Source of the DNA: Armatimonadota bacterium
GTDB taxonomy: Bacteria; Armatimonadota; UBA10988
Length of the DNA stretch: 64,000 bases
Direction of reading: 5' to 3'
NCBI GenBank assembly: GCA_016235455.1
Contig: JACRKZ010000102.1
Location: 1 to 64,000, forward strand
In this document: piece after piece, positions 4,396 to 62,926 of the stretch
Layout: each line of letters opens with the position of its first letter
Numbering within the stretch: position 1 is the stretch's first letter
Made by a program: the position numbers and the translations under genes
Notes under the pieces: generated by a model
The model's database searches: none
What the model saw: the letters and a program-made list of their open reading frames with translations, nothing else
What the model was told of the DNA's origin: nothing

Positions 4396-5271
4396 TCACC
4401 GGTACCGCTCAGGATCCGGATCCCATTCGAGCAACCGGTCCTTGCAGACATCCACCCACCGCCAGGGCGCGAACTCGAAGTCGCGGACCTCATGGCCCGG
4501 CATGTAGACCAACGCCTGGTCGCCCTCGATCACGTACAAGCGCCACGCCGCCTCGAAGCAGACGGGCTGCTCGTCCGGCTTGCCCAGTTGCTGCGTGACG
4601 GCCGCCGCCGACTTGCCGCGCCAGCGCCGGGTGGCCTCGGTGTCCGGGTCTATCTGGCGGCTCACGCTGGTGACCAGGCCGTCGGCGTCCAGCTCGAACA
4701 CCAGGCCGTCGAGGTAACACAACCGCGAGCGTTGCCGCTCATACACCACGTGCAGGCCGCCGGCCCGCGGTAGCGCCGCGAGCAGCGGGCGGTGCAGCGC
4801 GACGGTGTCCATGGTAGCCGGCGGATGGCCCGTGGCATTCTCCGCACGGTGAATCGCGCTGATCAGCGGCGCCATCGCCTCGACGAAGCGGCCGGCGGCG
4901 CCGCGGTGCGCGCTGGCCGCCTGGCCCGGGAGTGTGAACGCGGCCACGACGCCCAGCGCGAGCACCCCGAGCCACAGCCGTAGCACCACCTGTTCGGCCC
5001 GGCTGGGTTGCTGGAGCAGACCGCGGCACAACAGCCGCACCAGCGCCGACACCGCGCAGCCACAGAGCAGTCCGGCGCCGATCAGCAGGCCGTCCACGGC
5101 GGTGCCCGGGTAGAGCAGATCGGCGCCTTGCGACATGGGCAGGCATTGGCCGAGCAGGACCCACGTGGTGACACGGGCGACCATGCCCACCGTGCCCAGC
5201 GCACCGAGCCAGAGCAAGATCGGTAGCGGCCGCCGCGGCGGCGGGAACTCGACCCGTTGTGTGCTGTCCAT
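4396..5271 (-). CDS. Hypothetical membrane protein, tandem paralog 2
   Basis: MDSTQRVEFPPP start; close copy of 3458-4327 at protein and DNA level. Confidence 0.8.
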   Translation of the reverse strand: MDSTQRVEFPPPRRPLPILLWLGALGTVGMVARVTTWVLLGQCLPMSQGADLLYPGTAVDGLLIGAGLLCGCAVSALVRLLCRGLLQQPSRAEQVVLRLWLGVLALGVVAAFTLPGQAASAHRGAAGRFVEAMAPLISAIHRAENATGHPPATMDTVALHRPLLAALPRAGGLHVVYERQRSRLCYLDGLVFELDADGLVTSVSRQIDPDTEATRRWRGKSAAAVTQQLGKPDEQPVCFEAAWRLYVIEGDQALVYMPGHEVRDFEFAPWRWVDVCKDRLLEWDPDPERYR

Positions 5272-38498: not shown

Positions 38499-38515
38499 TG
38501 CCAAGCGCTCATTCG

Positions 38516-38584
38516 ATCCACAGATGACACAGATGCCACAGATCACGGACCCGACAATCTGTGTAATCTGTGTAATCTGTGGAT
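38516..38584. repeat. REP-like palindrome (CACAGAT x3 / ATCTGTG x3)
   Basis: atccacagatgacacagatgccacagat...atctgtgtaatctgtgtaatctgtggat; 9-bp periodic inverted arms. Confidence 0.85.
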
Positions 38585-51226: not shown

Positions 51227-53968
51227 CTACTCGACGGTCAGCGCCAGATCATCCAGCTCACAGGAGCCGGCCACGTTGCCGGCGCAGATGAACATGACGC
51301 GGCTGAGCGTCTGGAAATCGTCGGCCAGCGGCACCTCGGCCCGCTGCTCGCGGCCGTCGGGCCAGGTCGCCGTGACGACGGCTCGCCGCGCGTCGGCCCG
51401 GCCCAGCGTGAACCGCACGCTCAGCCGCAGCCACTCGCCCGGCGAGAGCTGGCCGAGCGTCTGGCCGCCGGCCGTGACCCGGCCATCGCCGTTGACCTGC
51501 GCGCTAGGCCCACCGGCGAACTCGCGGCCGGTCTTGGGCTGGTAGTCGCGGAACTCGAAGGACACGCCGCACGGCGCGCCGGGCTCGGTTCGCACGCGGC
51601 CCGACAGTGTCACCGTGCCCGACGGCACCGGCCTGGCCAGCGTGTGCGACAGATACGGCAGGAATGAGCGCGTCGCCAGCACCGTGTCCGTCAGTCGCAG
51701 GCAGCGCCGGCCCTCCGCCGCCACCGCGTCGGTGACCCCGACATCGGCCTGCCGCCCATCGGCCACCGCGACGACGAACTCGCGCGGCACCATGCCCACG
51801 GGCACATCCTCCAGGCTCAGCCGGAACCCCGGCACAGGCTCGGGAATGGCCGCCGGCTTCATCGCGTAGACCGGCGGCGGGGTCACGCGTACCGGCGCGG
51901 CCACGTCGCGGTAGTCCGCGCCGCGCCCCGCCTGGCTGGGATCGAACGGTACGAAGCCCAAGGCCAGGGCCGGCGACCCGGGCTTGAGCCGGAAGTCGCC
52001 GTGCGCCGGATCGACAAACAGCGGATCGGCTCTGACCGAGCCCTGGTCCTGCCCGAGCGCCTGCCATTCGGCCCAGGTCTTGCCCGCGAAGCCCAACGGC
52101 AGGCCGGCGGCGTTCCAGTACAGGTTCCCGCGACAGGCCATCAGCCCCAGCGGCCACACGGCATCAACCAGGTTGGGGCTGGTCGTGTAGCACAGGTTGC
52201 GCTCGAAGACGTTGGCCTTGGCGTACGGATTGGCGTAGCTGCGCACGAACGGCGCGGATTCGCCGTGCACCGGCCCGAAGATGTTGTTGCGAATGGTGTT
52301 CTGTGCGCCGCCGTTGATGTTGAACCCGTGCGTGCCCACGTTGTAGTCGAGGTTGTTCTCGACCAGCATCTCCGACGACCCTTCATCGAGATACAGGCCC
52401 AGTTGCCAGTGTTCCCGAGCGTGCGGGCCCTGCCGGTTGTCGTAGAGCACGTTGCCGGCGATGACCGTCCCCGGCTGTCGGCCGAGCGTATAGATGCTAG
52501 CGCCATCGGCCAGCAGCGACACGACGTTGTGAATGCGGTTGTACTCGATGCGGTTGCCTCCGCAGGCGGTGGGCTGGTCGCTCCAGTTCCAGCCCACGGC
52601 AATGCCCGAATACGGGAAGTTCCAGATTTCGTTGTGCGCGATGACCGTGTTGCGTACGATGCCGGCCCAGATCGCGTTGGCCGAGTAGTACATCAGCCCG
52701 CCGTCGGAGACCGCGCAGTTCTCGATGCGGTTGCCCGTCGGCACTTCCGGCGCGGTGGCATCGCCCTTCATGGCAATATCGCCGATCTTGATGCCGCCGC
52801 CGCCCAGGTCATACAGCCGGCAGCCCGAGACACGATCGTCGGCGCAGCCCAGGCCCAGGCCGAGACCGTAGTTGCCGGTCTGCGCGATGGTGCAGCGCTC
52901 CCACACGCAGCCGCGCGCGCCGACCGCCTCGACCGCGGCGGGCAGGTCGGGCTGGGCCTGGGAGCCGCCGTAGCCCTCACGCGGCAACGGGGTCTCGGTG
53001 TGCGAGAACGTCAGCCGCTCGAACCGCACGTGGTCGACGAACCGGCCCTTGGCCCAGTCGCCCGCGAGCCGCAGCACACGGTCGAGCCGGGGCGCCACCA
53101 GTCGCGTGTCGGCCAGCGCCTCGCCTGGCAGGGGCAGGTAGGTCAGCGTCCCGGTCGGCCGATCCAGATACCACTCGCCCGGCTCGCGCAGCGCCTCGGC
53201 CACGTTCTCCACGTAGTAAGGGTTGTGTGGCCCGACCTGGCCGATGGCGAAGGTCGGCAGGCCGGTGAACTCGACGATGCGGCTGGCTTCGTCGACGCGC
53301 GCGATGCGCAGGCGCGACGAACTCCACATGTGCAGCGCCACTACCTCCACATCGTCCAGGTTGCGCCAGGGCCGAATGTCGCCGGCGAAGTAGACGAAGT
53401 CCTTCTGTGCCGCGCGGTGCGCCGCGGCTACGCGCCGGGGCGAGTAGGTCAGCTGGTCCACGGCCAACATGCCGAGATGCGGCCGGTAGCGCCGCTGATA
53501 GGGCCCGTTGCCCGTCGAGACGAACAGCTGCCGGAAGGTCCACTGGCCCGCCGCCACCTCGGGCAGCGTGACGGTCCACTGGCGCCGGCCGCCGACCGTG
53601 CTCTCGCGCAACCCGCTCAGCGCGCGGCCGCCGCTGATCACCGGGCGCTCGTCGCGATAGGCGCGCCACACGGTCGGCGCCGCGGCCGTGCCGGAGTCCT
53701 CCGGCCCCAAGGTCCACGGCGCGTCCAGCGCGTAGGTCCCGCCGCGCAGCTCCACCGCCACCGGTCGGGCGGCGGCGCGCACTGCCTGCTGAGCGCGCCC
53801 GAGCGTGGCGAACGGACCATCGGTACCCGCGGCGTTGGCGGCCGGCAGCCGGCCCGACCAGGCGTCGCGGCCGGCGGGCGCCACGTAGAAGGTGGTCTGG
53901 CCCAGCGCGGCGACGGCACACAAGCCGGCGCACAACAGCGCTCGCGCGGGCAGTGGTATCGTGATCAT
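51227..53968 (-). CDS. Secreted right-handed beta-helix protein (GH141-like)
   Basis: FYVAPAGRDAWSG..GPFATL.RAQ, EPGEWYLD, PYSGIAVGW, DGASIYTLG, LYLDEGS. Confidence 0.88.
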   Translation of the reverse strand: MITIPLPARALLCAGLCAVAALGQTTFYVAPAGRDAWSGRLPAANAAGTDGPFATLGRAQQAVRAAARPVAVELRGGTYALDAPWTLGPEDSGTAAAPTVWRAYRDERPVISGGRALSGLRESTVGGRRQWTVTLPEVAAGQWTFRQLFVSTGNGPYQRRYRPHLGMLAVDQLTYSPRRVAAAHRAAQKDFVYFAGDIRPWRNLDDVEVVALHMWSSSRLRIARVDEASRIVEFTGLPTFAIGQVGPHNPYYVENVAEALREPGEWYLDRPTGTLTYLPLPGEALADTRLVAPRLDRVLRLAGDWAKGRFVDHVRFERLTFSHTETPLPREGYGGSQAQPDLPAAVEAVGARGCVWERCTIAQTGNYGLGLGLGCADDRVSGCRLYDLGGGGIKIGDIAMKGDATAPEVPTGNRIENCAVSDGGLMYYSANAIWAGIVRNTVIAHNEIWNFPYSGIAVGWNWSDQPTACGGNRIEYNRIHNVVSLLADGASIYTLGRQPGTVIAGNVLYDNRQGPHAREHWQLGLYLDEGSSEMLVENNLDYNVGTHGFNINGGAQNTIRNNIFGPVHGESAPFVRSYANPYAKANVFERNLCYTTSPNLVDAVWPLGLMACRGNLYWNAAGLPLGFAGKTWAEWQALGQDQGSVRADPLFVDPAHGDFRLKPGSPALALGFVPFDPSQAGRGADYRDVAAPVRVTPPPVYAMKPAAIPEPVPGFRLSLEDVPVGMVPREFVVAVADGRQADVGVTDAVAAEGRRCLRLTDTVLATRSFLPYLSHTLARPVPSGTVTLSGRVRTEPGAPCGVSFEFRDYQPKTGREFAGGPSAQVNGDGRVTAGGQTLGQLSPGEWLRLSVRFTLGRADARRAVVTATWPDGREQRAEVPLADDFQTLSRVMFICAGNVAGSCELDDLALTVE

Positions 53969-54035
53969 CGGGGTGGCTCCGCGGGCCGCCTTCGCCGTCG
54001 GGCTCAGCACATCCTTCCGCGGCGCCGGACAGGTC

Positions 54036-54061
54036 GAACCGGATCATGACATCCGGTGTCT
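54036..54061 (+). promoter_or_regulatory. Candidate ECF-type promoter with an embedded inverted repeat
   Basis: GAACC-N17-GTCT ends 18 bp upstream of the sigma ATG; accggat-catgac-atccggt palindrome at 54038-54057. Confidence 0.4.
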
Positions 54062-54079: not shown

Positions 54080-54661
54080 ATGCACGCCGAGCAGAATCCC
54101 ACAACCCGAGACGCGGCTGCGTTCGAGGCGGCTTGTGCGCAGTGGCGTGGCGAGCTGCAGCGGCTGGCGCTGGGCATTCTGCGCCAACCCGACACGGCCG
54201 ACGACGTGGTGCAGGAGGCGTTGCTGCGGCTGTGGACCGCCGACCCGCCACCATCGACCCAGGGCACGCGGTCCTGGCTGCTCAGGGTCACCACCAACCT
54301 GGCGCTCAACGCGCTGCGCAGCGCGCGCCGCCGGCCGGCCGACCCGGTCGATCCCGCGAGGCTGGGTCTGGCCCTGGCCGCGGGCGCGGGCCTGGCGGCC
54401 GGCAGTCAGCCGCCGGCCACGCCGCATCAGGCATTGGTACGCGCCGAGACCGACGGCCTGTACCGTCGCGCCCTGGCCGACCTGCCGCCTGCTCAGCGGC
54501 AGATCGTGTCGCTGGTCTACGAATCCGAGATGCGCCTGCGCGATGTGGCGGAGGCGCTCGGGGTGCCCGAGGGCACCGTCAAGTCGCGGCTGCACGCCGC
54601 CCGCGCCAAACTGTCGCGCCGCTGGCGCGAACTGGCCCCCGACTGGGAGGATGAGTCATGA
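54080..54661 (+). CDS. ECF-type sigma-70 factor
   Basis: Region 2 (ADDVVQEALLRLW, SWLLRVTTNLALN..R) and region 4 (LPPAQRQIV..VAEALGVPEGTVKSRLHAAR). Confidence 0.95.
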   Translation: MHAEQNPTTRDAAAFEAACAQWRGELQRLALGILRQPDTADDVVQEALLRLWTADPPPSTQGTRSWLLRVTTNLALNALRSARRRPADPVDPARLGLALAAGAGLAAGSQPPATPHQALVRAETDGLYRRALADLPPAQRQIVSLVYESEMRLRDVAEALGVPEGTVKSRLHAARAKLSRRWRELAPDWEDES

Positions 54662-57624
54662 ACCCCATTCCGCCAACCCCCTGGCACGCCGCCTCGTTTG
54701 ACCACTGCCTGCGCGGCAGCCTCCCGCGGCTTCTTGCCGAGCGACTGCCGTTGAGCGGTTACCACGTCGCGCCCGGCGAGGACGGCCAGGTGCGCGTGAC
54801 GGTGACCGTCGACGCGGCCGCCGCCGTCTACCACCTGCCGGCGCCCACGCCGGACGGCGTTTTCCACACGCCGCGCGGACCGCGCGTGGTCACGCCGTTG
54901 GTGGCCCATGACGATCTGGCCACGGCGGCGGTGGCCTGCGTGGGCGAGCAGTTGGCCACCATCGTCGAAACGCGCCTGGGCGTCGCGCCGGCCGACATCC
55001 CCTGGGACGAGGCGCTGCTGCGCGCCTGGCTGCCGCTGGACGGTTGGCTGGCCGAGTTGCTGGCCACCGCCGCGCCGCTGGACGAGCGCAATCTGCTGGC
55101 CCGCCTGACGCATCTGCGGCGCATCCGCGTGACCGCCATCGGGCCCGACGGACCGATCCTGCTGCCCGGTCACTGGGGCCGGGTCTGTCCCGTGGAGTCG
55201 CCCGAGGGCGAGAACCTGGGCCGGGTGCTGGTGCTGGCGCGCGGCGCCGGCATCGCCCACGGCCGTATCCTGCCCGCCGGCGCCGAGCCCGCGGAGCAGC
55301 TCGGACCTGGCGCGGCCTGCATCCCGTTCCTGCATCACGACGACGGCGTACGCGCGCTGATGGGCGCCAACATGATGCGCCAGTGGCTGCCACCCGAGGC
55401 GCCGGAGCCGGCGCTGGTGGTCACCGGCCTGGAGCCCGGTGAGCCGGCGCTGTGGTGCGGGCGCAACCTGCTCACCGGCTACCTGGATGTGGGCGCCGAC
55501 ACCCACGAGGATGCGCTGGTGGTCAGTGCCTCGGCCGCCTCCCGCCTGGGCCAGCAGGCGCCGCTGGAGCCCGGTGACAAGCTCAGCAACCGCCACGGCC
55601 AGAAAGGCGTGGTCAGCGCGATCTGGCCCGACGCGGCCATGCCGCGGCTGGCCGACGGCACGCCACTCGACCTCGTCGTCAGCCATCTCGGCGTGCAGAC
55701 CAGGCTCAACCTCGGCCAACTGCTGGAGGCCGTCGCCGGCCGGCTGGCCCGCGCGGAAGGCCAGGCCGTGGCAGCGCCACCCTACAGCGGGCCGAGCGTC
55801 GACGACCTGCGCCAGCGGCTGCGCGCCGCAGGCCTGCCCGAGGACGGCATGGAGCGGCTGAGCCTCGACGGCGCGGCGCTGGAACTGCCGTCGACGGTCG
55901 GCTACGTGTACTGGGGCAAGCTCTACTTGCGCGCGGCGCCGGCCCTGCACAGCCAGCCCGCGGGCCATGCCGGCGAGCGCATGGGGTGGCTGGACCACGC
56001 TTGCGTGCGCGAGAGCGGCTGCCGCGCCATCCCGGCCGAATGGGGCGGTCTGGGCTCGGTGGCACGGCTGGCACCGGGCGAACTCGCCGAGCTGCTGGCC
56101 GCCGGCGAGCCGCCACCACTGGGTCCGCCGACGCCCTGGCTGGCGGCGCTGACGCGGCGCCTGGCGGTGCTCGGCATCGGCGTCGAGATCGACAGTGCCG
56201 GCCTGCATTTCGGGCTGCGTGAGCCGGACGACGCGCTGGAACTGGCCGAGCCGGTGCCGCATCCGTGGCACCGCGACCTGCTGCTGACCCGCCTGGGGCC
56301 ATGGAGCGGCGACGCCTGGGAGGCCACCCTGGCCGCTAACGCCAGGTTGGCCCGGCTGCGGGCCGAGGCCGCGCCCGACGCCTTGCTGCAGCCCGCGCGC
56401 GGCGCGCTGGCCAGCGCCATCGAGGCGCTGGCGCGGCGGCTGGTGCGCCGCGAGCACCTGTGCGCCGGCGACCGCGTGGCCTACAGCGGTCGTGCGGTCA
56501 TCGCGCCCGGCGGCGACCTGTGCTGGGACCAGGTCGGCCTGCCGCGCGACCTGGCGGAGCCGTTGTTCGCGCCGCTGCTGGCCCGGAGCGGCGAGACGGA
56601 CTTGGCGGCGGTGATGGCGCGGCACTGGCTGTTGGTGACCCGCGCGCCGGCCGTGGCGGCCTCCGCTCATGTGGCGCTGCGGCCGGTGCTGGTGCCCGAC
56701 CGCGTCATCCGGCTGCATGCGCTGACGCTGATGATGCTCAACGCCGACTTTGACGGTGATCAGGTGGCGGTGATGCTGCCGCTCACCGCCGCCACGCAGG
56801 CCGAGGCGGCGCAGCGGCTGAGCATCGGCGCCCACCTGGAGCGCGATTCAGGCTTGCTGGGCTCGCTGCTGCCGCCCATGTCGGCACGCTGGGGCCTGGC
56901 CTGGCTCAGCCTGACCACCGCCGGCCGGCAGCAGATCGCCCACCTGCTGGGCTTCGAGCTGCCCGACGATGGCCACTTGACCCGCGCCGGCCTGCTGGAA
57001 GCCGCGGCGCAGATACGGCTGCGCGACGGCGTGGACGGCCTGATGGGCACTCTCGACGCGTTGACCCGGCTGGGCTTCGCCGCGGCCCGGCGTAGCGGCG
57101 CGTCGCTGGCGCCGTTCGCCGGCACCACGCGCGCCCTGCCGCCGCAGCCGCAAGACGATGATCGCGTGGCCTGGGCGGCCTACGCCGAGCAACTCGTCGA
57201 GTGCCTGCGGGCCGTGGAGGACTATGCCAACCCCGACCTCGGGCCGCAGATCCTCGCCGTCAAGTCCGGCGCGCGCGGTACGTGGCGCTTCTTCGAGCGG
57301 ATGCTCGGCGGCCAGCTCCTACCCGATGGCGCGGCCGGGCTGACCCCGCAGAGGCATTCGCAGATCGAGGGCCTGAGCCCCGAGGAGTACCGCCTGCGCC
57401 TGCACTCTGGCCGTAGCGCGCTGGCCATGTGGCTCCAGAGCTGGACGGCCACCTGCACCAGCATCCGCGAGGGCGCCGGCCCGCATGGCTTCGGCGTGCT
57501 GGCGCGCGCCTGCCACTCGGCGCAGCCGGGCGTCATCTTCGCCCGCGCCGCGCTCACCGGCGAGTGCGACCCCCTGGCTGACGCCGCCAGCCGCCTGTTC
57601 GTCGGCGTCGCGGACCGCGGGTAG
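54658..57624 (+). CDS. Single-chain miniature DNA-directed RNA polymerase-like protein (trimmed RpoB-RpoC fusion)
   Basis: Beta motifs HWGRVCPVESPEG, IPFLHHDD..RALMGANMMRQ, HEDALVVS, GDKLSNRHGQKG, TVGYVY; beta' motifs RVAYSGRAVI, RAP, NADFDGDQ, SGARG, EGLSPEEY; all in canonical order. Confidence 0.93.
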   Translation: MNPIPPTPWHAASFDHCLRGSLPRLLAERLPLSGYHVAPGEDGQVRVTVTVDAAAAVYHLPAPTPDGVFHTPRGPRVVTPLVAHDDLATAAVACVGEQLATIVETRLGVAPADIPWDEALLRAWLPLDGWLAELLATAAPLDERNLLARLTHLRRIRVTAIGPDGPILLPGHWGRVCPVESPEGENLGRVLVLARGAGIAHGRILPAGAEPAEQLGPGAACIPFLHHDDGVRALMGANMMRQWLPPEAPEPALVVTGLEPGEPALWCGRNLLTGYLDVGADTHEDALVVSASAASRLGQQAPLEPGDKLSNRHGQKGVVSAIWPDAAMPRLADGTPLDLVVSHLGVQTRLNLGQLLEAVAGRLARAEGQAVAAPPYSGPSVDDLRQRLRAAGLPEDGMERLSLDGAALELPSTVGYVYWGKLYLRAAPALHSQPAGHAGERMGWLDHACVRESGCRAIPAEWGGLGSVARLAPGELAELLAAGEPPPLGPPTPWLAALTRRLAVLGIGVEIDSAGLHFGLREPDDALELAEPVPHPWHRDLLLTRLGPWSGDAWEATLAANARLARLRAEAAPDALLQPARGALASAIEALARRLVRREHLCAGDRVAYSGRAVIAPGGDLCWDQVGLPRDLAEPLFAPLLARSGETDLAAVMARHWLLVTRAPAVAASAHVALRPVLVPDRVIRLHALTLMMLNADFDGDQVAVMLPLTAATQAEAAQRLSIGAHLERDSGLLGSLLPPMSARWGLAWLSLTTAGRQQIAHLLGFELPDDGHLTRAGLLEAAAQIRLRDGVDGLMGTLDALTRLGFAAARRSGASLAPFAGTTRALPPQPQDDDRVAWAAYAEQLVECLRAVEDYANPDLGPQILAVKSGARGTWRFFERMLGGQLLPDGAAGLTPQRHSQIEGLSPEEYRLRLHSGRSALAMWLQSWTATCTSIREGAGPHGFGVLARACHSAQPGVIFARAALTGECDPLADAASRLFVGVADRG

Positions 57625-57638
57625 TCATGCCTGAATCA

Positions 57639-57718
57639 GATCCACAGATTACGCAGGTTGCACAGACTGCTCAGAGGCCAGTCCGAGCGATCTGTGTCAT
57701 CTGTGTGATCTGTGGATC
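57639..57718. repeat. REP-like palindrome (CACAGAT family), possible bidirectional terminator
   Basis: gatccacagattacgcaggttgcacagac...atctgtgtcatctgtgtgatctgtggatc between convergent genes. Confidence 0.8.
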
Positions 57719-57731
57719 CTCAGGGAGATGG

Positions 57732-58781
57732 CTAGCGATTGGCGCACCAGGTGCGCAGTGTGGCCAGGATGCGCCGTGCGTCGTCCAGTGGGCGGCCGCC
57801 CATGTTGAACAGGAACCGCGTGTCGGGCCGCGCCAGGTCGAGCATTTCGCGCACGCCGGCCTCGTCGCGCCAGGCGACCATGTGCACCGTCTCGCCGGCG
57901 AACAGATCGAGCGCGGGCTTGGGGCCGGGCGGATACTGGAACACGCGGTTGAGCCCGCGCAGCCGCGGCACCCGCGCGAACAGCGGGTAGTGCGCGTCGG
58001 CCCGAGCGCAGCAGTGCATCCACATGCCGCCGTAGCGCTCGCTCATGGCCACCAGGCTGGGCAGGCAGAACTGCTCGAACATGGCCGGCGACAGGCTGCC
58101 CGTTTCGTCCTCGGACAGTGAGCAGCCCAGCGCCGGCGGCCCGTAGGCGGCGCCGGGGCAATGGATGGCGTTGTGGCCAGGGAACGCGCGGCGGAAGTCG
58201 TCGAGGAAGCCGGTGAGCAGCGCGTAGGTCTTGTCCACCAGTGCCAGCACCGCCTCGGGCGTGTCCACCATGGCGATGAACATCTCCTCCTTGTTCCAGA
58301 TCAGCGCGGCAATGTCGAACGGACTCTGGATGTCCGGGCCGGTGATCGGCGCGTCAGGCCCCAGTTCGGCCTGCACCAGCTCCGCCAGCTCCCACCAGCG
58401 CGCCAACCCGCGACCGGCCGACCAGTCGGGCGTCGGCAAGGCATCGGCCTCGGCGGCGGCATGCACGAACGGCAGCGCGGCGGCGTTCGAATCCCGGAAC
58501 GGCACCACGCGGCAGCCAAAGGCCTCGGCGAAAACGCCGGTGTGCGTGGTCATCGGCGCCACCGGCACGGTGTCGCAGCCCAGCGCCTCGGTCTGCGCCA
58601 GCCAGGCGCGGTACTGAGCAACGATGCCCGGCACCCAATCGCTCACCGGCCGGTCGGACACCGTCACATCGCCCGGGCTGTCGACGAGGCCGGGCGGATC
58701 GAAGGTGATGGCATGGCCGGGGAATGGGCCGCTGAACAGATCGATCTGGTACTGACGATTGCGCGCAATGCGATCGGGCAT
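57732..58781 (-). CDS. URO-D/corrinoid methyltransferase-like family protein
   Basis: AEAFGC, PDIQSPFDIAALIW, SEDE..LSPAMFEQFCLP, MHCC. Confidence 0.8.
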   Translation of the reverse strand: MPDRIARNRQYQIDLFSGPFPGHAITFDPPGLVDSPGDVTVSDRPVSDWVPGIVAQYRAWLAQTEALGCDTVPVAPMTTHTGVFAEAFGCRVVPFRDSNAAALPFVHAAAEADALPTPDWSAGRGLARWWELAELVQAELGPDAPITGPDIQSPFDIAALIWNKEEMFIAMVDTPEAVLALVDKTYALLTGFLDDFRRAFPGHNAIHCPGAAYGPPALGCSLSEDETGSLSPAMFEQFCLPSLVAMSERYGGMWMHCCARADAHYPLFARVPRLRGLNRVFQYPPGPKPALDLFAGETVHMVAWRDEAGVREMLDLARPDTRFLFNMGGRPLDDARRILATLRTWCANR

Positions 58782-58857
58782 GGCCGACCTCCCAGCCGCG
58801 TAGCATAGCGCGTTTGGGGCGCGGTTAGGTACAATCCCCCGACTGGGAGCCTGTGCC

Positions 58858-59892
58858 ATGGCCGCTCGCTGGCTGCGCTGTCTGTTGTTGGTCCTGCCCC
58901 TCGCCGCCGGAGCCGCTCCGGCTCGCACCGAGCATGTCAGCGATGGCGCCGAACTGATGGCCGCCGTGGCGCGCGGTGGCGGCGAACGCAGCATCGTGCT
59001 CGACGCGGGTACCTATGAGATAAGTGGGACTCTGAGCTTCGAGCGCGTGAACCAGGTAAGCGTGCTGGGCAGCGGCTGGAATACGGTCATTCGCAAGACC
59101 GGGCCCGGCCCGGCCATGGCCTTCGCCGACTGCGGCTTCTGCCTGGTGCGCGACCTGCTGATCGTCGGTGACGGCAAGGCTCAGGCCGGCATCGTCTTTG
59201 GCGGCCAGAGCAGCTCCAACACCGTCGACAAGTGCCGACTGGCCGACTTCCTGCTGAGCGGCATCCGCTTCCAGGGCGAGGCCGCCCGCCCCATGTCGTC
59301 CAACGTGGTGCGCGACTGCCACTTCGTCGACAACGCTGCCGCGCAGCTCTACAGCGAGTACAACAACGACTACGCGATCAGCGGCTGCCAGTTTGGCGCG
59401 CACCACTCGACCCCCGCCGCCGGCGCGCAGTTGTTGCACTCGTCGGCCGGCAACTACACCGGTAACTTCCATTGGGGCAACCAGAACGCGCTACTGCTGG
59501 GGCCCGGCAGCAACTTCAACCGCATCCAGGCCAACCGCCTGGAGGAGAGCCAGCGCGAGGCGCTGATCATCGGCTCACCCGAGCCCAGCCCCGCCTGGTC
59601 GGGTCATTGCAGCCTGAACATCATCACGGGCAACACCTTCCACACCAACTCCAAGCAAGAGAAGGGCCGCTACGACGCCATCGCCGCCTACGACGCGGTG
59701 GACACGACGTTCACCTCGAACCAGGTGTTCTCGTGGGACTCCGACCACTTCCGCCACCGCGCGGCGTTGGCGCTGGGTCGCGGCTGTGGCACGTGGATCG
59801 TCCGGGACAACATCCTGCGGCACCACACCGGGCCGGCGCTCGTGTTCGATGCCGGTTCGGGGCATCTGGTGAAGGACAACCTGGGCCAGTAG
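58858..59892 (+). CDS. Secreted right-handed beta-helix protein
   Basis: Signal peptide, AGTYEI, LGSGWNTVI, Asn-ladder repeats. Confidence 0.8.
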   Translation: MAARWLRCLLLVLPLAAGAAPARTEHVSDGAELMAAVARGGGERSIVLDAGTYEISGTLSFERVNQVSVLGSGWNTVIRKTGPGPAMAFADCGFCLVRDLLIVGDGKAQAGIVFGGQSSSNTVDKCRLADFLLSGIRFQGEAARPMSSNVVRDCHFVDNAAAQLYSEYNNDYAISGCQFGAHHSTPAAGAQLLHSSAGNYTGNFHWGNQNALLLGPGSNFNRIQANRLEESQREALIIGSPEPSPAWSGHCSLNIITGNTFHTNSKQEKGRYDAIAAYDAVDTTFTSNQVFSWDSDHFRHRAALALGRGCGTWIVRDNILRHHTGPALVFDAGSGHLVKDNLGQ

Positions 59893-60142
59893 GCGGGGGA
59901 ACCAGCTCGATCACGCTGGATTGCCACGGGCCGGCTATGCCTTGAGGGCGCCGCCACGGGCTCCATGTTCCTGTCAAGGCGATTCCGCTCGCGAACGAGC
60001 GCCCGCTGACGATCGCCGCGCCCGGTCGAGTCCTCGTATTGCGACATTGTGATCTCCTTCGGTTTACTCCCGGGGGTATTCAGGGTATGAAGCGAAAATA
60101 GACCAGGCGTGTCCGATTATGCGGCGCGCCCCGGAGGACGAT

Positions 60143-61399
60143 ATGGAACTTCGCGGATCCGTGTCAGGACGAGGGCGTACCCTCACTGCTCGACCAACGA
60201 CGGTGGTGCTGGGGCTGATGGTGGGTGTGCTGCCCTGGCTGACCAGCTGCGGTAGCGCCAGCGATGCCGGTGGCAACCCACTGGCCGCGGCCGGCCCGAC
60301 GAGTGAAGGCGGCCGGGCGGTCGCCTCGAACCCGTATGTGGTCATCGGCTGGAACGATCTGGGCATGCACTGCATGAACCAGGACTTCTCGAATCTGATG
60401 ATCCTGCCGCCGTACAACACACTGCACGCGCAGGTCATCCGGCGCGGTGAGGAGCCGCAGATCGTCAGCAGCGGCGTGACGGTGAACTACAGCGTGCCGG
60501 GCAACACGCGCTCGAGTACCAAGACGAACTTCTGGCAGTACGCCAAGGCCCTGACCGGCCTGACCTTGGCCAACGATGTCGGCTTGACGGGCCACCGGCT
60601 GGCCGGGACCATGACCGCGACGAGCAATCGAGACTGGAGCGTGACCGGCGTGCCCATCACTCCGGTGACCGATGTGGGCGCGCTGAACGCCTACCAGATG
60701 GCCAGCATCAGTGTGGCTAGCCGGGGTACCACGGTGGCCAACACACAGGCGGTGATACCAGTCTCGTGGGAGATAAGCTGCAATCTGTGTCACAACACGC
60801 CGGGCATCTCGCCCGATGTGGACATCCTGCGCAAGCACGACAGCCTGCACGGCACCCAACTGGTCAAGCAGCGGCCGGTGAACTGCGCCAAGTGCCATGC
60901 CGAGCCGAACCTGGGCTCGACCGGCGCGCCTGGCGTCAAGAGCCTGTCGGCCGCCATGCACGGCTCACACGCCAAGCGCATGGCCTCCGCCAAGCTGACC
61001 AACGAATGCTACGCCTGTCACCCTGGCGTCAAGACCAACTGCCAGCGTGACGTGCACAAAGCCAAGGGCATCACCTGCACCGCCTGCCACGGCTCCATGG
61101 CCACGGTGGCCGCGCCGAGTAGGCGCCCGTGGGTCGATGAGCCGAGCTGCGGCAGCTGCCACAAGCGCGCCGGGTTCGAGTTCGAGCAGCCTGGCAAGCT
61201 GTTCCGCGACAGCAAGGGCCATCATGGGGTCCAGTGCGCGGCTTGCCACGGCAGCCCGCACGCCGTCGGGCCCGCTGTGAACGCGGCCGACAACGCCCAG
61301 GCCATCGCCCTGCAAGGTCATGCCGGCCCGATCGACACCTGCACGGTCTGCCACACCAAGCGGCCGGACGAGGCGTTCGAGCATCGGCTCGACGACTGA
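60143..61399 (+). CDS. Multiheme cytochrome c lipoprotein (7 CxxCH)
   Basis: Lipobox LTSC; GWNDLGMHC N-terminal domain; CNLCH, CAKCH, CYACH, CTACH, CGSCH, CAACH, CTVCH. Confidence 0.92.
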   Translation: MELRGSVSGRGRTLTARPTTVVLGLMVGVLPWLTSCGSASDAGGNPLAAAGPTSEGGRAVASNPYVVIGWNDLGMHCMNQDFSNLMILPPYNTLHAQVIRRGEEPQIVSSGVTVNYSVPGNTRSSTKTNFWQYAKALTGLTLANDVGLTGHRLAGTMTATSNRDWSVTGVPITPVTDVGALNAYQMASISVASRGTTVANTQAVIPVSWEISCNLCHNTPGISPDVDILRKHDSLHGTQLVKQRPVNCAKCHAEPNLGSTGAPGVKSLSAAMHGSHAKRMASAKLTNECYACHPGVKTNCQRDVHKAKGITCTACHGSMATVAAPSRRPWVDEPSCGSCHKRAGFEFEQPGKLFRDSKGHHGVQCAACHGSPHAVGPAVNAADNAQAIALQGHAGPIDTCTVCHTKRPDEAFEHRLDD

Positions 61400-61502: not shown

Positions 61503-62786
61503 CTAAGCCGACGGGTCGGCCACGCGGCCCAGGAACAGCACCGCGCCGGTGGGCCGGTCGCGCAGCACCAGCAGGAACGGCCGGTCGATGGTCAGCGTGA
61601 CGTGGTCACCGGGTGCCGAGGTGGCGCCGATGACCACCGCCGTGGCCGCGGCGGCTTCGGTGCCGGTCTCGTCGATACGCACGTACGCCTTGTGCAGCAC
61701 ATCGCTGATGGCCAGGTCGCGCCGGCCGTCGATGCCGCTCAGGTCGGCCAGGGATCCGTCGAAGGCGTCGGTCATGCCCAGCGACTGGAGCGCGGCACTG
61801 AGCGGCAGGCTGCTCTCCACCTTGAACTTGGGTAGCGCCAACGAGACGTCGGTGTTTCTCAACCCACCGAGGATCGCCGTCAGCCGCGCCGCGTCGAGCG
61901 CGTTCTCCACCGCGGCGAAGCGGCCGGCGTCGGGCACGAGCAGCAGCAAGGACAACTGCTCGCCGGCGTAGGGCAGTTCCACCGCGCGCCAGCCGTCGCC
62001 GGCCGCATACGGCAGGGCTTGGCGCTGGTTCATGAACGTCACGGTGACGCTGACGCCAGCCAGCGTGGTGAAGGAGCGGTCGGCGGTCTGCGCCACCTCG
62101 AACGGCGTGGCCCAGGGCGCCAGGAAGTAGATGGCGTTGGTCAGCACCAGCCGCGTCAGCGTCGTCACCGCGCCCGGCGGCAGGAGATTGTTGATGCGGT
62201 CGGCGGTCTGGTCGCTGACCCACTGGTTGATGGTGCCGCGCGCCGCCTCGGCGTTGGCCTGGTAGTCCACCACCCTCATGCCCGCGCCGTAGTTGACCGC
62301 CAGCGTGTCCAGGAAGGCCGACTGGAACGTCTCGCCGCGCTGGCCCCAGATGGCGTTGGCCACGCGCAGCCGGAAGCCCTGGTTGCCGTTTTGCCCCGCC
62401 TCGCGCGCGGCCAGCGCCAGGTCGAGCGCGTCGAACGCCGGGTGCAGCCGCGCCGCGGGCAGGTCGTAGCCGAGCGCGGCGGCCATCTGCGTCGCGGTGT
62501 TGCCAGCGGCGCCGGCATAGGCCATGGCCAAGGCCAGCGACACGCTGTAGGGTGAGAAGAAGAGGTTGCCCGAGCGGCTCTGGGTGCCATACAGGTTGAG
62601 TGCAAAGCGCGTGTTGCCCGCCACCAGCGCGGCCAGATCGCCAGCGGGCACAACGGGTGACGTGTTGCGCGGCAGATCCGAGGCGATGCGCGACGAGTCG
62701 CCCGACTTGCCGCTCGAGCCGCAGCCGCCCAAAGCGGCATAGCCGGATGCCAGCGCCAGCATCCGCAGGAGAGAACGCCTGTCCAT
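61503..62786 (-). CDS. Serpin (serine protease inhibitor), Tat lipoprotein
   Basis: MDRR leader and LGGC; NLFFSPYS, INQWV, LVLTNAIYF, LPKF, hinge DETGTEAAAATA, DRPFL, LFLGRV. Confidence 0.96.
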   Translation of the reverse strand: MDRRSLLRMLALASGYAALGGCGSSGKSGDSSRIASDLPRNTSPVVPAGDLAALVAGNTRFALNLYGTQSRSGNLFFSPYSVSLALAMAYAGAAGNTATQMAAALGYDLPAARLHPAFDALDLALAAREAGQNGNQGFRLRVANAIWGQRGETFQSAFLDTLAVNYGAGMRVVDYQANAEAARGTINQWVSDQTADRINNLLPPGAVTTLTRLVLTNAIYFLAPWATPFEVAQTADRSFTTLAGVSVTVTFMNQRQALPYAAGDGWRAVELPYAGEQLSLLLLVPDAGRFAAVENALDAARLTAILGGLRNTDVSLALPKFKVESSLPLSAALQSLGMTDAFDGSLADLSGIDGRRDLAISDVLHKAYVRIDETGTEAAAATAVVIGATSAPGDHVTLTIDRPFLLVLRDRPTGAVLFLGRVADPSA

Positions 62787-62926
62787 GATCGACTCCCGCC
62801 AGATAGGATGCCACTGCAACGCGGCGACGGCCATGGGTGTTCAAGACGATGGTACGCGCCACGGGGCGATTATCCTCAGAGAACAGTAGTCGCCCCTCTG
62901 ACTTCCCGGGGTAATCGCTGTCCGCC

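Follow-up and report, generated by a model that had tools for sequence, protein, structure and literature searches.

A conserved gene pair of an ECF sigma factor and a miniature RNA polymerase: a candidate minimal sigma-dependent transcription system

Introduction

What does an ECF sigma factor do when the gene translationally coupled to it encodes a drastically reduced RNA polymerase? ECF genes are usually, although not universally, adjoined by the gene for their cognate anti-sigma factor. In the window analysed here, a 64,000-nt stretch of an Armatimonadota genome, that position is occupied by a single-chain fusion of beta- and beta'-like sequences (mini-RNAP). The same genome also carries normal rpoB and rpoC (1452 and 1864 aa), and the mini-RNAP is thus an extra enzyme. 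No description of such a sigma/mini-RNAP pair was found in the literature searched, and the pair appears to be undescribed. Our preferred reading, to which we give a probability of roughly 0.4, is that the two proteins constitute a minimal RNA polymerase that depends on the sigma and is itself expressed from a promoter specific to that sigma. The coexistence of normal rpoB and rpoC is in keeping with this reading, which is weighed below against three alternatives.

Organization of the locus

The two genes form one small operon with the following features, numbered from the first letter of the window.

54036-54060, + strand: predicted ECF-type promoter of the operon, GAAC (-35), 15 nt, GGTGTC (-10), ending 19 nt before the sigma ATG
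54080-54661, + strand: ECF-type sigma factor, 193 aa, with sigma-2 and sigma-4 domains
54646-54650, + strand: GGAGG, ribosome-binding site of the polymerase gene, inside the end of the sigma gene
54658-57624, + strand: single-chain beta-beta' fusion mini-RNAP, 988 aa, its start overlapping the sigma stop
57639-57718, no strand assigned: long hairpin of 80 nt between convergent genes

The tetranucleotide ATGA at 54658-54661 holds both the stop codon of the sigma gene (TGA, 54659-54661) and the start codon of the polymerase gene, and with GGAGG just upstream this agrees with a preliminary description of the locus made from the sequence. The conserved promoter, which extends to 54060, backs the ATG at 54080 as the sigma start, since the other candidate, a GTG at 54056, falls within the -10 element. 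Upstream of the pair is a divergent beta-helix/GH141-like ORF (51227-54010, - strand) and downstream a convergent URO-D-like ORF (57732-58994, - strand). The intervening hairpin (dG -66.5 kcal/mol, z -7.6, with 0 of 200 shuffled sequences equally stable) is probably a bidirectional terminator; a consensus terminator scan over it returned no match because it has no T run. The pair had been described as bounded by a divergent gene and a palindrome. Both are there, but the palindrome is no special mark of the pair: its arms belong to a REP-like repeat family dispersed through the genome, partial copies of which number more than 20 and are spread over at least 15 other contigs. The reported lack of flanking anti-sigma, phage, integrase and plasmid genes was borne out, none being detected when 10 flanking ORFs were scanned for families, and no tRNA was found in 40000-64000.

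The sigma factor has the layout of the ECF group (group IV), consisting only of sigma-2 and sigma-4 without region 1.1 or region 3. Pfam assigns Sigma70_r2 to residues 22-85 (E = 2e-12) and Sigma70_r4_2 to residues 128-178 (E = 2e-15), and the score with the NCBIfam sigma70-ECF model is 80.2 bits (cut-off 42.9). The domains are joined by a linker of ~40 aa and followed by an acidic C-terminal tail (DWEDES). In an alignment of 26 sigmas from such modules the tail is conserved as W..I..EWED, and the linker motif PGWM.D..LGPE is present in most, being absent from the window sigma and its closest relative (locus L006). The window sigma is also nearer to module sigmas of other phyla (median 85 bits) than to its best paralog in its own genome (53 bits). 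The conserved linker and tail of these sigmas would fit the preferred reading of a dedicated polymerase partner.

Architecture and active site of the mini-RNAP

The polymerase chain can be divided as follows, conservation being counted over 200 family members.

54658-56202, + strand: beta-like half, residues 1-515; reduced protrusion, fork and flap-less double-psi barrel, to the beta C-terminal region
55351-55383, + strand: RALMGANMMRQ motif of beta, residues 232-242 (N238 195/200, R241 195/200)
55504-55515, + strand: HEDA, acidic pair of the beta barrel, residues 283-286 (E284 167/200, D285 185/200)
55573-55608, + strand: GDKLSNRHGQKG, beta active-site lysine/arginine motif, residues 306-317
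56203-57621, + strand: beta'-like half, residues 516-988; from just before the clamp helices to the conserved beta' C-terminal region
56311-56442, + strand: clamp-helix coiled coil, residues 552-595 (model helices 552-569 and 574-595)
56740-56760, + strand: NADFDGD catalytic loop, residues 695-701
57379-57474, + strand: bridge-helix-like long helix, residues 908-939, from the secondary structure of the AF2 model

Both halves are clearly related to the bacterial core enzyme. Pfam identifies Rpb2_3, Rpb2_6 (E = 4e-29) and Rpb1_2 (E = 1e-16), sequence matches in the PDB reach E = 1e-39 for beta and 1e-17 for beta', and the full-length AF2 model has a pLDDT of 89.9 and a pTM of 0.87. In profile alignments, residues 82 to ~520 match residues 544-1439 of the 1452-residue host RpoB over 431 columns, with long host segments left unmatched, and residues 528-719 match beta' residues 343-586 of host RpoC. 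Structure comparison aligns the beta-like half along the entire beta subunit (Z 28-31), model residues 2-513 corresponding to residues 13-1059 of a cyanobacterial beta (Z 28.4, rmsd 2.7, 507 aligned). The beta'-like half, modelled alone (pLDDT 81.9), likewise spans the whole length of beta', matching residues 10-1257 of M. tuberculosis beta' (Z 15.6, 427 aligned, 27% identity) and other largest subunits with Z up to 20.7. Within this half, residues 93-194 resemble DPBB domains of both natural and designed origin (Z 8-9). These whole-length matches argue for a polymerase of reduced size.

The mini-RNAP retains both double-psi barrels with the DxDGD metal site and the beta Lys/Arg cluster, together with the fork and a switch-2-like SGRAV, and lacks the lobe, flap, rudder, jaw, trigger loop and the beta' N-terminus with its zinc finger. 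In normal holoenzyme the flap tip helix holds sigma region 4; here residues 297-300 bridge approximately residues 960-1120 of host RpoB in the alignment. Loss of this dock and of the beta' N-terminus weighs against sigma-directed initiation by the mini-RNAP, and with the lobe, rudder, jaw and trigger loop gone, promoter opening and clamp closure may differ from those of the parent enzyme. The helix at 908-939, 32 residues preceded by SGARG, owes its bridge-helix label to a by-eye reading against host RpoC, not to a tool alignment. Only ~8 residues separate it from the C-terminal conserved region, where host RpoC has hundreds, so that the mini-RNAP has no trigger loop. Such a loop is dispensable for activity in enzymes of this kind: for YonO, no detectable trigger-loop homology is reported, but a catalysis as efficient as that of multisubunit RNAP (PMC5467207).

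The active site is intact and under selection. In the GDK..RHG.KG motif K308 is found in 199/200 members, R312 in 200/200, H313 in 195/200 and K316 in 194/200, and in the catalytic loop D697, D699 and D701 are found in 196, 200 and 199 of 200, respectively. The HEDA pair presumably contributes to the Mg-B/NTP site, by analogy with E. coli beta, and conservation extends along the whole chain. Two observations run counter to an ordinary polymerase: N695 of NADFDGD is not conserved (N in 133, Q in 32 and D in 21 of 200), and in three Poribacteria species the sole copy carries Asn in place of the first catalytic Asp, a clade that is nevertheless under purifying selection (dN/dS 0.18-0.26).

Residues 552-595 align to the clamp helices of host beta' and, on sequence and model, are the putative counterpart of the beta' sigma-2 docking site. 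This element is kept while its neighbours have been deleted, with N561 conserved in 196/200 members, R563 as R/K in 180/200, R566 in 177/200 and P573 in 200/200, as would be expected if the coupled sigma docked there. Their retention is no proof of sigma binding, as clamp helices have other partners as well and are part of the framework of the clamp itself.

Retained clamp helices would allow sigma binding equally if the large protein were a core mimic acting as an anti-sigma factor, one of the two earlier suggestions, which we consider rather improbable. The clamp helices would then hold the sigma off the host core, a negative feedback relieved when a ligand, nucleic acid or inhibitor in the cleft releases it; on the earlier suggestion the pocket may act as a sensor for NTPs, nucleic acid or RNAP-targeting antibiotics. 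The gene does occupy the usual anti-sigma slot of ECF operons and is translationally coupled, no conserved anti-sigma gene is nearby and the sigma-4 dock is deleted. A decoy, however, needs ~50 residues of coiled coil rather than 988, and no Pfam anti-sigma domain is present in the polymerase. The near-invariance of catalytic and substrate-binding residues, with conservation of the entire chain, favours an active polymerase over a pure decoy, whereas the flap deletion and the single-copy Asn variants maintained in Poribacteria keep the mimic alive as an explanation. Moreover, the only visible output of a freed sigma is more of the same two proteins, which implies that the large protein must still be the effector.

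Pairing and distribution

A scan of species genomes recovered 205 relatives of the mini-RNAP in at least eight phyla. The gene immediately upstream encodes a sigma in 76 of 80 loci, and in 76/77 when three of the other four, which lack upstream DNA, are set aside. The sigma gene is the only conserved neighbour of the polymerase; across the 80 loci there is no conserved third gene and no alpha- or omega-like partner encoded nearby, and Pfam anti-sigma families are absent from the 10 flanking ORFs in the window. In a sample of 401 genomes of the window's phylum, 31 are polymerase-positive and the sigma adjoins in 30 of these, with no sigma of the module clade (judged at ≥183 bits) in any of the 370 polymerase-negative genomes. 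The sigma and polymerase distance matrices are correlated (r 0.92, a value reached in 0 of 999 permutations), and the junction is overlapping or ≤30 nt in ~50 of 75 loci. It is the conservation across loci, and not the overlap, that sets the pairing apart from chance. The earlier proposal of a conserved two-gene system of ECF sigma and mini-RNAP without an anti-sigma factor thus stands; homologs usually occurring without an adjoining sigma, the observation that would have told against it, is not what was found. This linkage speaks for the preferred reading of a two-protein polymerase.

The module is an accessory one of patchy distribution, with the polymerase in 2 of 5 genomes of the window's own family. 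Such a pattern, together with two ABC exporter genes inserted between promoter and sigma gene at one locus (L048), brings to mind a spare or inhibitor-resistant polymerase, or an anti-phage module, acting when an antibiotic or a phage protein blocks the host RNA polymerase. We regard this as very improbable. In searches of PADLOC defence families the polymerase had no match and the sigma two weak ones (E = 0.003), both to its helix-turn-helix. The surrounding genes show no conservation and nothing like a defence island was seen, and no promoters of the module type precede housekeeping genes in the genomes scanned. The tree also agrees fairly well with phylum boundaries, with 9 label changes where shuffling gives 38.6 on average, unlike fast-moving defence genes.

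A conserved promoter and its possible users

Of 75 regions upstream of the sigma gene, 71 contain the motif GAAC-N14-19-GTGTC, the spacer being 16 nt long in 67 of them, and the full consensus, TGAAC-N16-GTGTC, is conserved across phyla. In the 80 loci (1.02 Mb, both strands) GAAC-N16-GTGTC has 78 matches, 66 of them at the operon promoter position. At one locus (L018) the sigma gene is not adjacent and the promoter stands directly in front of the polymerase gene itself; this placement and the conservation across phyla count in favour of the preferred reading. Polymerase, sigma and promoter co-occur strictly. With a GAAC-type -35, a short GC-rich -10 and fixed spacing, the promoter is predicted to be of the autoregulated type. 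The genomes scanned yielded no further site of consensus grade. The window genome has 15 matches compared with 7-15 in spacer controls, including one intergenic candidate, five closed genomes have 1-5 compared with 1-3, and in five Poribacteria the module's own site has 0-1 mismatch and every other site 3. The enzyme consequently has no visible target beyond itself, a point against the preferred reading.

Strict canonical spacing is what would be expected of host core plus sigma, and the mini-RNAP has no sigma-4 dock. The sigma may therefore be a regulator only, the host core reading the promoter with it and the operon being a portable self-activating cassette, with the mini-RNAP as sole effector working sigma-free on another substrate. 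That substrate might be DNA with a primer or a nick, or RNA serving as template in the manner of QDE-1, or the activity might be the synthesis of short oligonucleotides. We hold this reading, which was not among the two suggested earlier, to be unlikely, though it has several observations in its favour. A one-operon regulon fits the lack of other promoters, expression in eight or more phyla would be accounted for by a cassette bringing its own sigma and promoter, variation of the sugar-sensing Asn of NADFDGD hints at an altered substrate, and for single-chain relatives such as YonO the available text reports no sigma (PMC5467207). It leaves unexplained, however, the clamp helices (N561, R563, R566) kept beside a deleted rudder, the sigma-specific linker and tail, and the tight translational coupling. 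In addition, an autoregulated sigma without an anti-sigma factor or other control would run away, which favours some feedback via the co-made protein.

Under the preferred reading of a two-protein minimal polymerase, the operon would be read from its own GAAC-N16-GTGTC promoter and sigma and polymerase would be made together through the ATGA overlap. Sigma region 2 would dock on the retained clamp helices, and the pair would initiate at promoters of this type, its own included, forming a self-amplifying unit workable in any host phylum. Three steps of this scheme are conjectural: that the sigma binds the mini-RNAP, that the promoter is used by the mini-RNAP and not by the host core enzyme alone, and that the product is RNA.

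Comparison with known systems

Operons of ECF sigma and class I anti-sigma factors typically show the order promoter-sigma-partner, translational coupling and autoregulation. The present operon has the same order and coupling and a promoter of the autoregulated type, but its partner is a polymerase core without an anti-sigma domain.

Full-length rpoB-rpoC fusions are known from Helicobacter and Wolbachia and, like the mini-RNAP, place beta first and beta' second in one polypeptide. The corresponding NCBIfam models (PRK14844 and PRK09603) have ~2840-2890 positions covering all domains, whereas the mini-RNAP scores 139 and 131 bits against their cut-offs of 4632 and 5372. A cell with such a fusion has no other polymerase, and the mini-RNAP is an extra copy.

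YonO of the Bacillus prophage SPbeta, QDE-1 and phage P23-45 gp96 are also single-chain two-barrel enzymes without a trigger loop, and none has a reported sigma partner. QDE-1 and gp96 match the beta'-half model at the barrel only (Z 7.9 and 7.6). YonO is described as an active, processive DNA-dependent RNA polymerase with few active-site residues in common with cellular enzymes in the available text (PMC5467207), which sets it apart from the plainly beta/beta'-like mini-RNAP. Of 50,697 phage records searched by tblastn, 24 matched; no match came from a Bacillus phage or extended over 80% of the query, and among the best 80 of 131 relatives in IMG/VR none is full-length.

The same design is seen in Orf6 of the yeast cytoplasmic plasmid pGKL2, described as a 982-aa Rpb2::Rpb1 fusion that has lost about half of its coding sequence (PMC2919709), and thus almost equal in size to the mini-RNAP. 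Orf6 is of eukaryotic-type descent, however, lacks a sigma and is carried by a linear plasmid. The likeness is one of design and probably convergent.

With the bacterial core and its ECF sigmas, finally, the pair shares clear beta/beta' homology, both barrels, NADFDGD, GDK..RHG.KG, clamp helices, a putative bridge helix, the sigma-2/sigma-4 domains and an ECF-type -35/-10 promoter. It differs in having one 988-aa chain in place of the two host subunits, in lacking everything between the bridge-helix-like helix and the C-terminal region, and in scores far below the NCBIfam equivalog cut-offs (rpoB 153.3 against 801.15; rpoC 76 against 963.5). With two polypeptides and ~1180 residues, it may be the smallest natural sigma-dependent RNA polymerase of cellular type, a self-transcribing and host-independent (orthogonal) unit maintained in at least eight phyla, a possibility that we put at somewhat below even odds. 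If so, sigma-directed initiation would be seen to need very little of the bacterial core and would proceed without alpha, omega, flap, lobe, zinc finger or trigger loop.

Organisation of the locus

Our preferred reading, to which we give a probability of roughly 0.4, is that the ECF-type sigma and the mini-polymerase encoded next to it would form a two-protein RNA polymerase holoenzyme which initiates at GAAC-N16-GTGTC promoters, that of their own operon included. The features concerned, in a window of ~70% G+C, are the following.

54036-54060: predicted promoter site of the pair
54080-54661, + strand: sigma ORF, 193 aa, with Pfam Sigma70_r2 and Sigma70_r4_2 and the NCBIfam ECF superfamily model above cut-off
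54658-57624, + strand: mini-polymerase ORF, 988 aa, a single beta-beta' chain
57639-57718, between convergent genes: 80-nt hairpin, dG -66.5 kcal/mol, z -7.6

The translational overlap reported in the preliminary description was confirmed, the sigma TGA (54659-54661) overlapping the polymerase ATG (54658-54660), with GGAGG at 54646-54650. A divergent beta-helix/GH141-like ORF lies 5' of the pair and a convergent URO-D-like ORF 3' of it; the flanks had been described as free of anti-sigma, integrase, phage and plasmid families, and none was detected among the 10 flanking ORFs scanned. No tRNA was found near the pair, and a consensus scan for sigma-70 promoters and terminators returned no sites. 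Partial copies of the hairpin arms, numbering more than 20, are spread over at least 15 further contigs of the genome, with one at 38515-38584 of the window, and the hairpin is therefore a REP-like dispersed palindromic repeat outside the module; Rfam gave only sub-threshold microRNA-like matches to it (32.5 bits, where the gathering score is 94). The nine sequencing runs containing the stretch are all DNA metagenomes, from groundwater and freshwater. A few kb downstream, and unrelated to the module, are genes for a multihaem cytochrome c with Cytochrome_C7/c3 motifs (60119-61399) and a full-length serpin (61503-62834; Pfam Serpin, E 8.5e-104).

Architecture of the mini-polymerase

The mini-polymerase is a fusion of beta and beta' in shortened form. 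Pfam detects Rpb2_3 (residues 141-197), Rpb2_6 (295-423) and Rpb1_2 (654-719), and in the PDB its sequence matches bacterial beta best (E 1e-39), as well as beta' (E 1e-17). Against the equivalog models of rpoB, rpoC and full-length beta/beta' fusions it scores far under the cut-offs. Ordinary rpoB (1452 aa) and rpoC (1864 aa) are present on another contig of the genome; the mini-polymerase gene is therefore additional.

The host subunits were aligned with a profile built from 25 family members. Mini-polymerase residues 82 to ~520 match host beta 544-1439 over 431 columns, leaving long stretches of RpoB unmatched, the flap region included, as residues 297-300 span approximately host 960-1120. 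Residues 528-719 match beta' 343-586, a region containing the clamp helices, a switch-2-like SGRAV and NADFDGD, and the rudder region, ~30 host RpoC residues past the clamp helices, is unmatched. Judged by eye, the N-terminal ~140 residues resemble the start of beta (SFD.FL motif), and in our own reading the beta lobe is absent after them.

In the confident AlphaFold2 model of the chain (pLDDT 89.9, pTM 0.87), residues 552-595 form a helical hairpin and residues 908-939 a single helix of 32 residues. Because the C-terminal conserved region comes almost directly after this helix, the protein has no trigger loop. Residues 1-515 superpose end-to-end on second-largest subunits (Z 28-31), 507 residues aligning with cyanobacterial beta 13-1059 at an rmsd of 2.7. 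Residues 516-988, modelled separately (pLDDT 81.9), superpose end-to-end on largest subunits (Z up to 20.7), among them M. tuberculosis beta' 10-1257 (Z 15.6, 427 aligned).

Active site and clamp helices

Conservation was scored over 200 family members, comprising 120 database proteins and 80 loci. Aspartates D697 (196/200), D699 (200/200) and D701 (199/200) are retained, as are K308 (199/200), R312 (200/200), H313 (195/200), K316 (194/200), R241 (195/200), D285 (185/200) and, less strictly, E284 (167/200). The Asn of NADFDGD (residue 695, window 56740-56742), to our knowledge invariant among cellular enzymes, is Asn in 133 of the 200, Gln in 32, Asp in 21, His in 4 and Glu in 4, a variability in sequence which hints at relaxed or altered sugar recognition. 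Three Poribacteria species (chromosomal loci L052, L055 and L073) carry NANFDGD, with Asn replacing the first catalytic Asp. Each genome has one polymerase copy, dN/dS is 0.18-0.26 against 0.11-0.16 in the sister clade, and the distance from promoter to sigma start is 130-150 nt rather than the usual ~20. The D-to-N change in this subclade argues against the holoenzyme.

The clamp-helix hairpin keeps Y554, N561 (196/200), R563 (R/K, 180), R566 (177) and P573 (200), residues which fit the pattern of the beta' segment NRNNRL.R...AP, whose Arg residues are known sigma-70 contacts. The retained clamp helices also suit an alternative in which the large protein is a core mimic acting as an anti-sigma factor. 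We regard this as unlikely; it is compatible with a holoenzyme, since any clamp-helix binding would also withdraw the sigma from the host core.

Genomic association of the sigma factor with the polymerase

A tblastn search placed the sigma on the same strand just upstream of the polymerase in 76 of 80 loci of relatives. Three of the others (L029, L033, L081) have no upstream DNA; the sole exception with upstream DNA, L018 from a Chthonomonadaceae MAG, has an unrelated reverse-strand ORF (4595-5158) in the place of the sigma. Flanking ORFs of the 80 loci, all those down to 80 aa in length, were clustered, and no neighbour besides the sigma (76 loci) proved to be conserved; the three clusters ranking after it consist of ORFs that overlap the sigma gene in other frames, and the first real one behind them comes from 10 closely related Poribacteria. 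Sigma/polymerase junctions, classed at 75 loci with approximately assigned start codons, comprise overlaps of 4 nt (17) and 1 nt (10) and gaps of 0-30 nt (23), 31-100 nt (13) and >100 nt (9), the remaining three being without an assigned start or showing a spurious long overlap. Poribacteria and some Chloroflexota (e.g. L035:5714-5976, L051, L063, L068) have a gap of 64-263 nt instead of an overlap.

Co-occurrence of the sigma clade with the polymerase, proposed as a check on the pairing, held in a sample of 401 genomes of the window's phylum, in which sigma-profile scores are separated by a gap and all 27 places scoring at least 183 bits adjoin the polymerase, in polymerase-positive genomes. 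Three more polymerase-positive genomes have an adjacent sigma at 153-162 bits, and in another the polymerase lies at a contig edge; scores in the polymerase-negative genomes of the sample do not exceed 164 bits. For comparison, the best sigma paralog in the window's genome scores 53 bits and module sigmas of other phyla have a median of 85 bits. Sigma and polymerase distance matrices are correlated (r 0.92, 64 pairs, 0/999 permutations as high), which shows that the two are inherited together, not that they are in contact.

Two motifs are common to the module sigmas, PGWM.D..LGPE in the linker and W..I..EWED in the C-terminal tail (window 54380-54450 and 54630-54658); the window's sigma and that of its closest relative (L006) have kept the tail and lost the linker motif. 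A search for a polymerase deletion paralleling this loss in the window's clade found nothing telling. Predicted complexes of polymerase 9-721 plus 886-988 with sigma 12-193, made from alignments, without controls and with the funnel (722-885) cut out, which may have impaired the prediction, scored 0.34, 0.26 and 0.23 against a mark of 0.32, and we draw nothing from these values. Among the matches listed in a search of longer proteins for sigma-polymerase fusions, with the window's divergent sigma as query, there was one 671-aa protein with sigma domains only; long ORFs at L027, L034 and L083 were rejected as fusions, being artefacts of first-start-codon choice.

Promoter and candidate targets

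Of 75 regions upstream of the sigma, 71 contain GAAC-N14-19-GTGTC, and in 67 the spacer is 16. The consensus, TGAACyTTT..GCGGTGTCwT, ends ~20 nt before the start codon, and 66 of 78 exact-spacing matches in the 80 loci occupy the sigma-upstream position. At L018 (5140-5170), a GAAC-N16-GTGTC motif stands directly ahead of the polymerase gene. Relative to six close relatives, a closed Chloroflexota chromosome (L048:1481-5962) carries a ~3.8-kb insert exactly between the -10 element and the sigma leader, consisting of two same-strand ABC exporter genes (ABC_membrane plus ABC_tran), so that the promoter now heads a four-gene operon in the order promoter-ABC-ABC-sigma-polymerase. The ABC genes may be natural cargo of a sigma-dependent promoter, or a disruption.

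Targets elsewhere were sought by several scans. One that used a position-weight matrix was biased by the GC-rich background and did not recover even the site in the window. The motif was not enriched in the window's genome (15 matches against 7-15 for same-phase control spacers), nor in five closed genomes (1-5 against 1-3 for the reversed pattern). Five closed Poribacteria genomes were compared with a 19-base consensus, to which the own site shows 0-1 mismatch and every other site 3. Sites in the window's genome look coding except the own site, one just past a coding region (contig C122) and one intergenic. The latter, GAAC-N15-GGTGTC at C10:30415-30439 (L181:1416-1440), lies between divergent genes for tsaD and a HAD-family hydrolase, followed by 6-phosphogluconate dehydrogenase; it was rejected as a second target because chance expectation covers it. 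Also rejected were two identical motif-like 26-mers in a Latescibacterota genome (G002, C1:244168 and C1:1476025), antisense within a 727-aa ORF, which point to a duplicated gene or element.

Thus, at the stringency used, the own operon is the sigma's only clear target, and that no other promoter target is visible counts against the holoenzyme. The alternative that the sigma is only a regulator of a portable cassette is, in our estimate, rather unlikely.

Distribution and descent

The protein search gave at least 659 matches among 7997 scored candidates, the best 120 of which are 988-1079 aa long, 40-66% identical, and unnamed, hypothetical or named by Pfam domains only. A scan of one genome per species (185,579 species) found a relative encoded in 205 of 221 candidate stretches. 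The 80 loci kept, several on closed chromosomes, come from poorly studied phyla, namely Armatimonadota, Chloroflexota, Planctomycetota, Poribacteria, Latescibacterota, Hydrogenedentota and others, including a Verrucomicrobiota-type Moanabacter and a Limnochordia. The polymerase is present (E 1e-80 or better) in 31 of the 401 genomes sampled from the window's phylum, a patchiness which marks it as an accessory gene; it occurs in 19 of 300 high-quality phylum genomes and 2 of 5 in the window's family.

The polymerase tree largely tracks phyla (9 label changes, where the minimum is 6 and shuffling gives a mean of 38.6), with a few cross-phylum placements, and the window's polymerase groups with L006, from an Armatimonadota groundwater MAG (68% identity). 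No full-length member was found among the best 80 of 131 relatives in IMG/VR, and none of the 68 plasmid or 24 phage matches covers 80% of the query. A mobile origin was rejected on the matches listed, the partial ones being ordinary or viral rpoB/rpoC. PADLOC defence families gave nothing of note for the pair, and its PHROGs matches were confined to generic families of sigma and RNAP-beta; a backup or defence role for this accessory gene is very improbable.

Discussion

Bacterial-type RNA polymerases need a sigma to start at promoters. The holoenzyme is favoured because the enzyme is bacterial in origin, because the sigma is its only constant companion, and because the sigma-2 dock is kept while its neighbours are lost. 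The lack of a trigger loop has a precedent in YonO, a single-chain relative without one which is reported to be fully active (PMC5467207). Against the holoenzyme, the sigma-4 dock is deleted, yet promoter spacing is canonical; as a conjecture, the sigma linker motif and W..I..EWED tail might serve as substitute anchors.

If the holoenzyme is real, it would define a natural minimal sigma-dependent polymerase, permit a direct test of the core modules required for promoter opening, offer a compact, portable orthogonal expression system and represent a new case of reductive evolution in the central enzyme of gene expression. A mimic that holds the sigma would instead be a new class of anti-sigma factor.

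No description of the family was found in the open literature covered; a prior mention may exist. In Casas-Pastor et al. 2021 (PMC7826278), the terms rpoB, rpoC, Rpb, PF00562, PF00623 and Armatimonadetes are all absent from the main text, and the supplementary ECF-group tables of the paper could list the sigma group. We rate the large protein as a single-chain two-barrel polymerase, here sigma-coupled.

Bacterial transcription is taught as requiring sigma and a five-subunit core of ~400 kDa. Single-chain relatives described so far (YonO, QDE-1, yeast plasmid Orf6 and phage enzymes) are very divergent and are not known to have a sigma. The mini-polymerase resembles beta/beta' far more than YonO, QDE-1 or P23-45 gp96 do and, scoring below the cut-offs, is not a full-length rpoBC fusion. 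Its design matches that of the 982-aa Rpb2::Rpb1 fusion of the yeast plasmid pGKL2 (PMC2919709), from which it differs by its bacterial ancestry. Unlike YonO, QDE-1, Orf6 and the phage enzymes, the family remains recognisably beta/beta'-like, keeps the sigma-2 dock and is accompanied by its own sigma and a cognate promoter.
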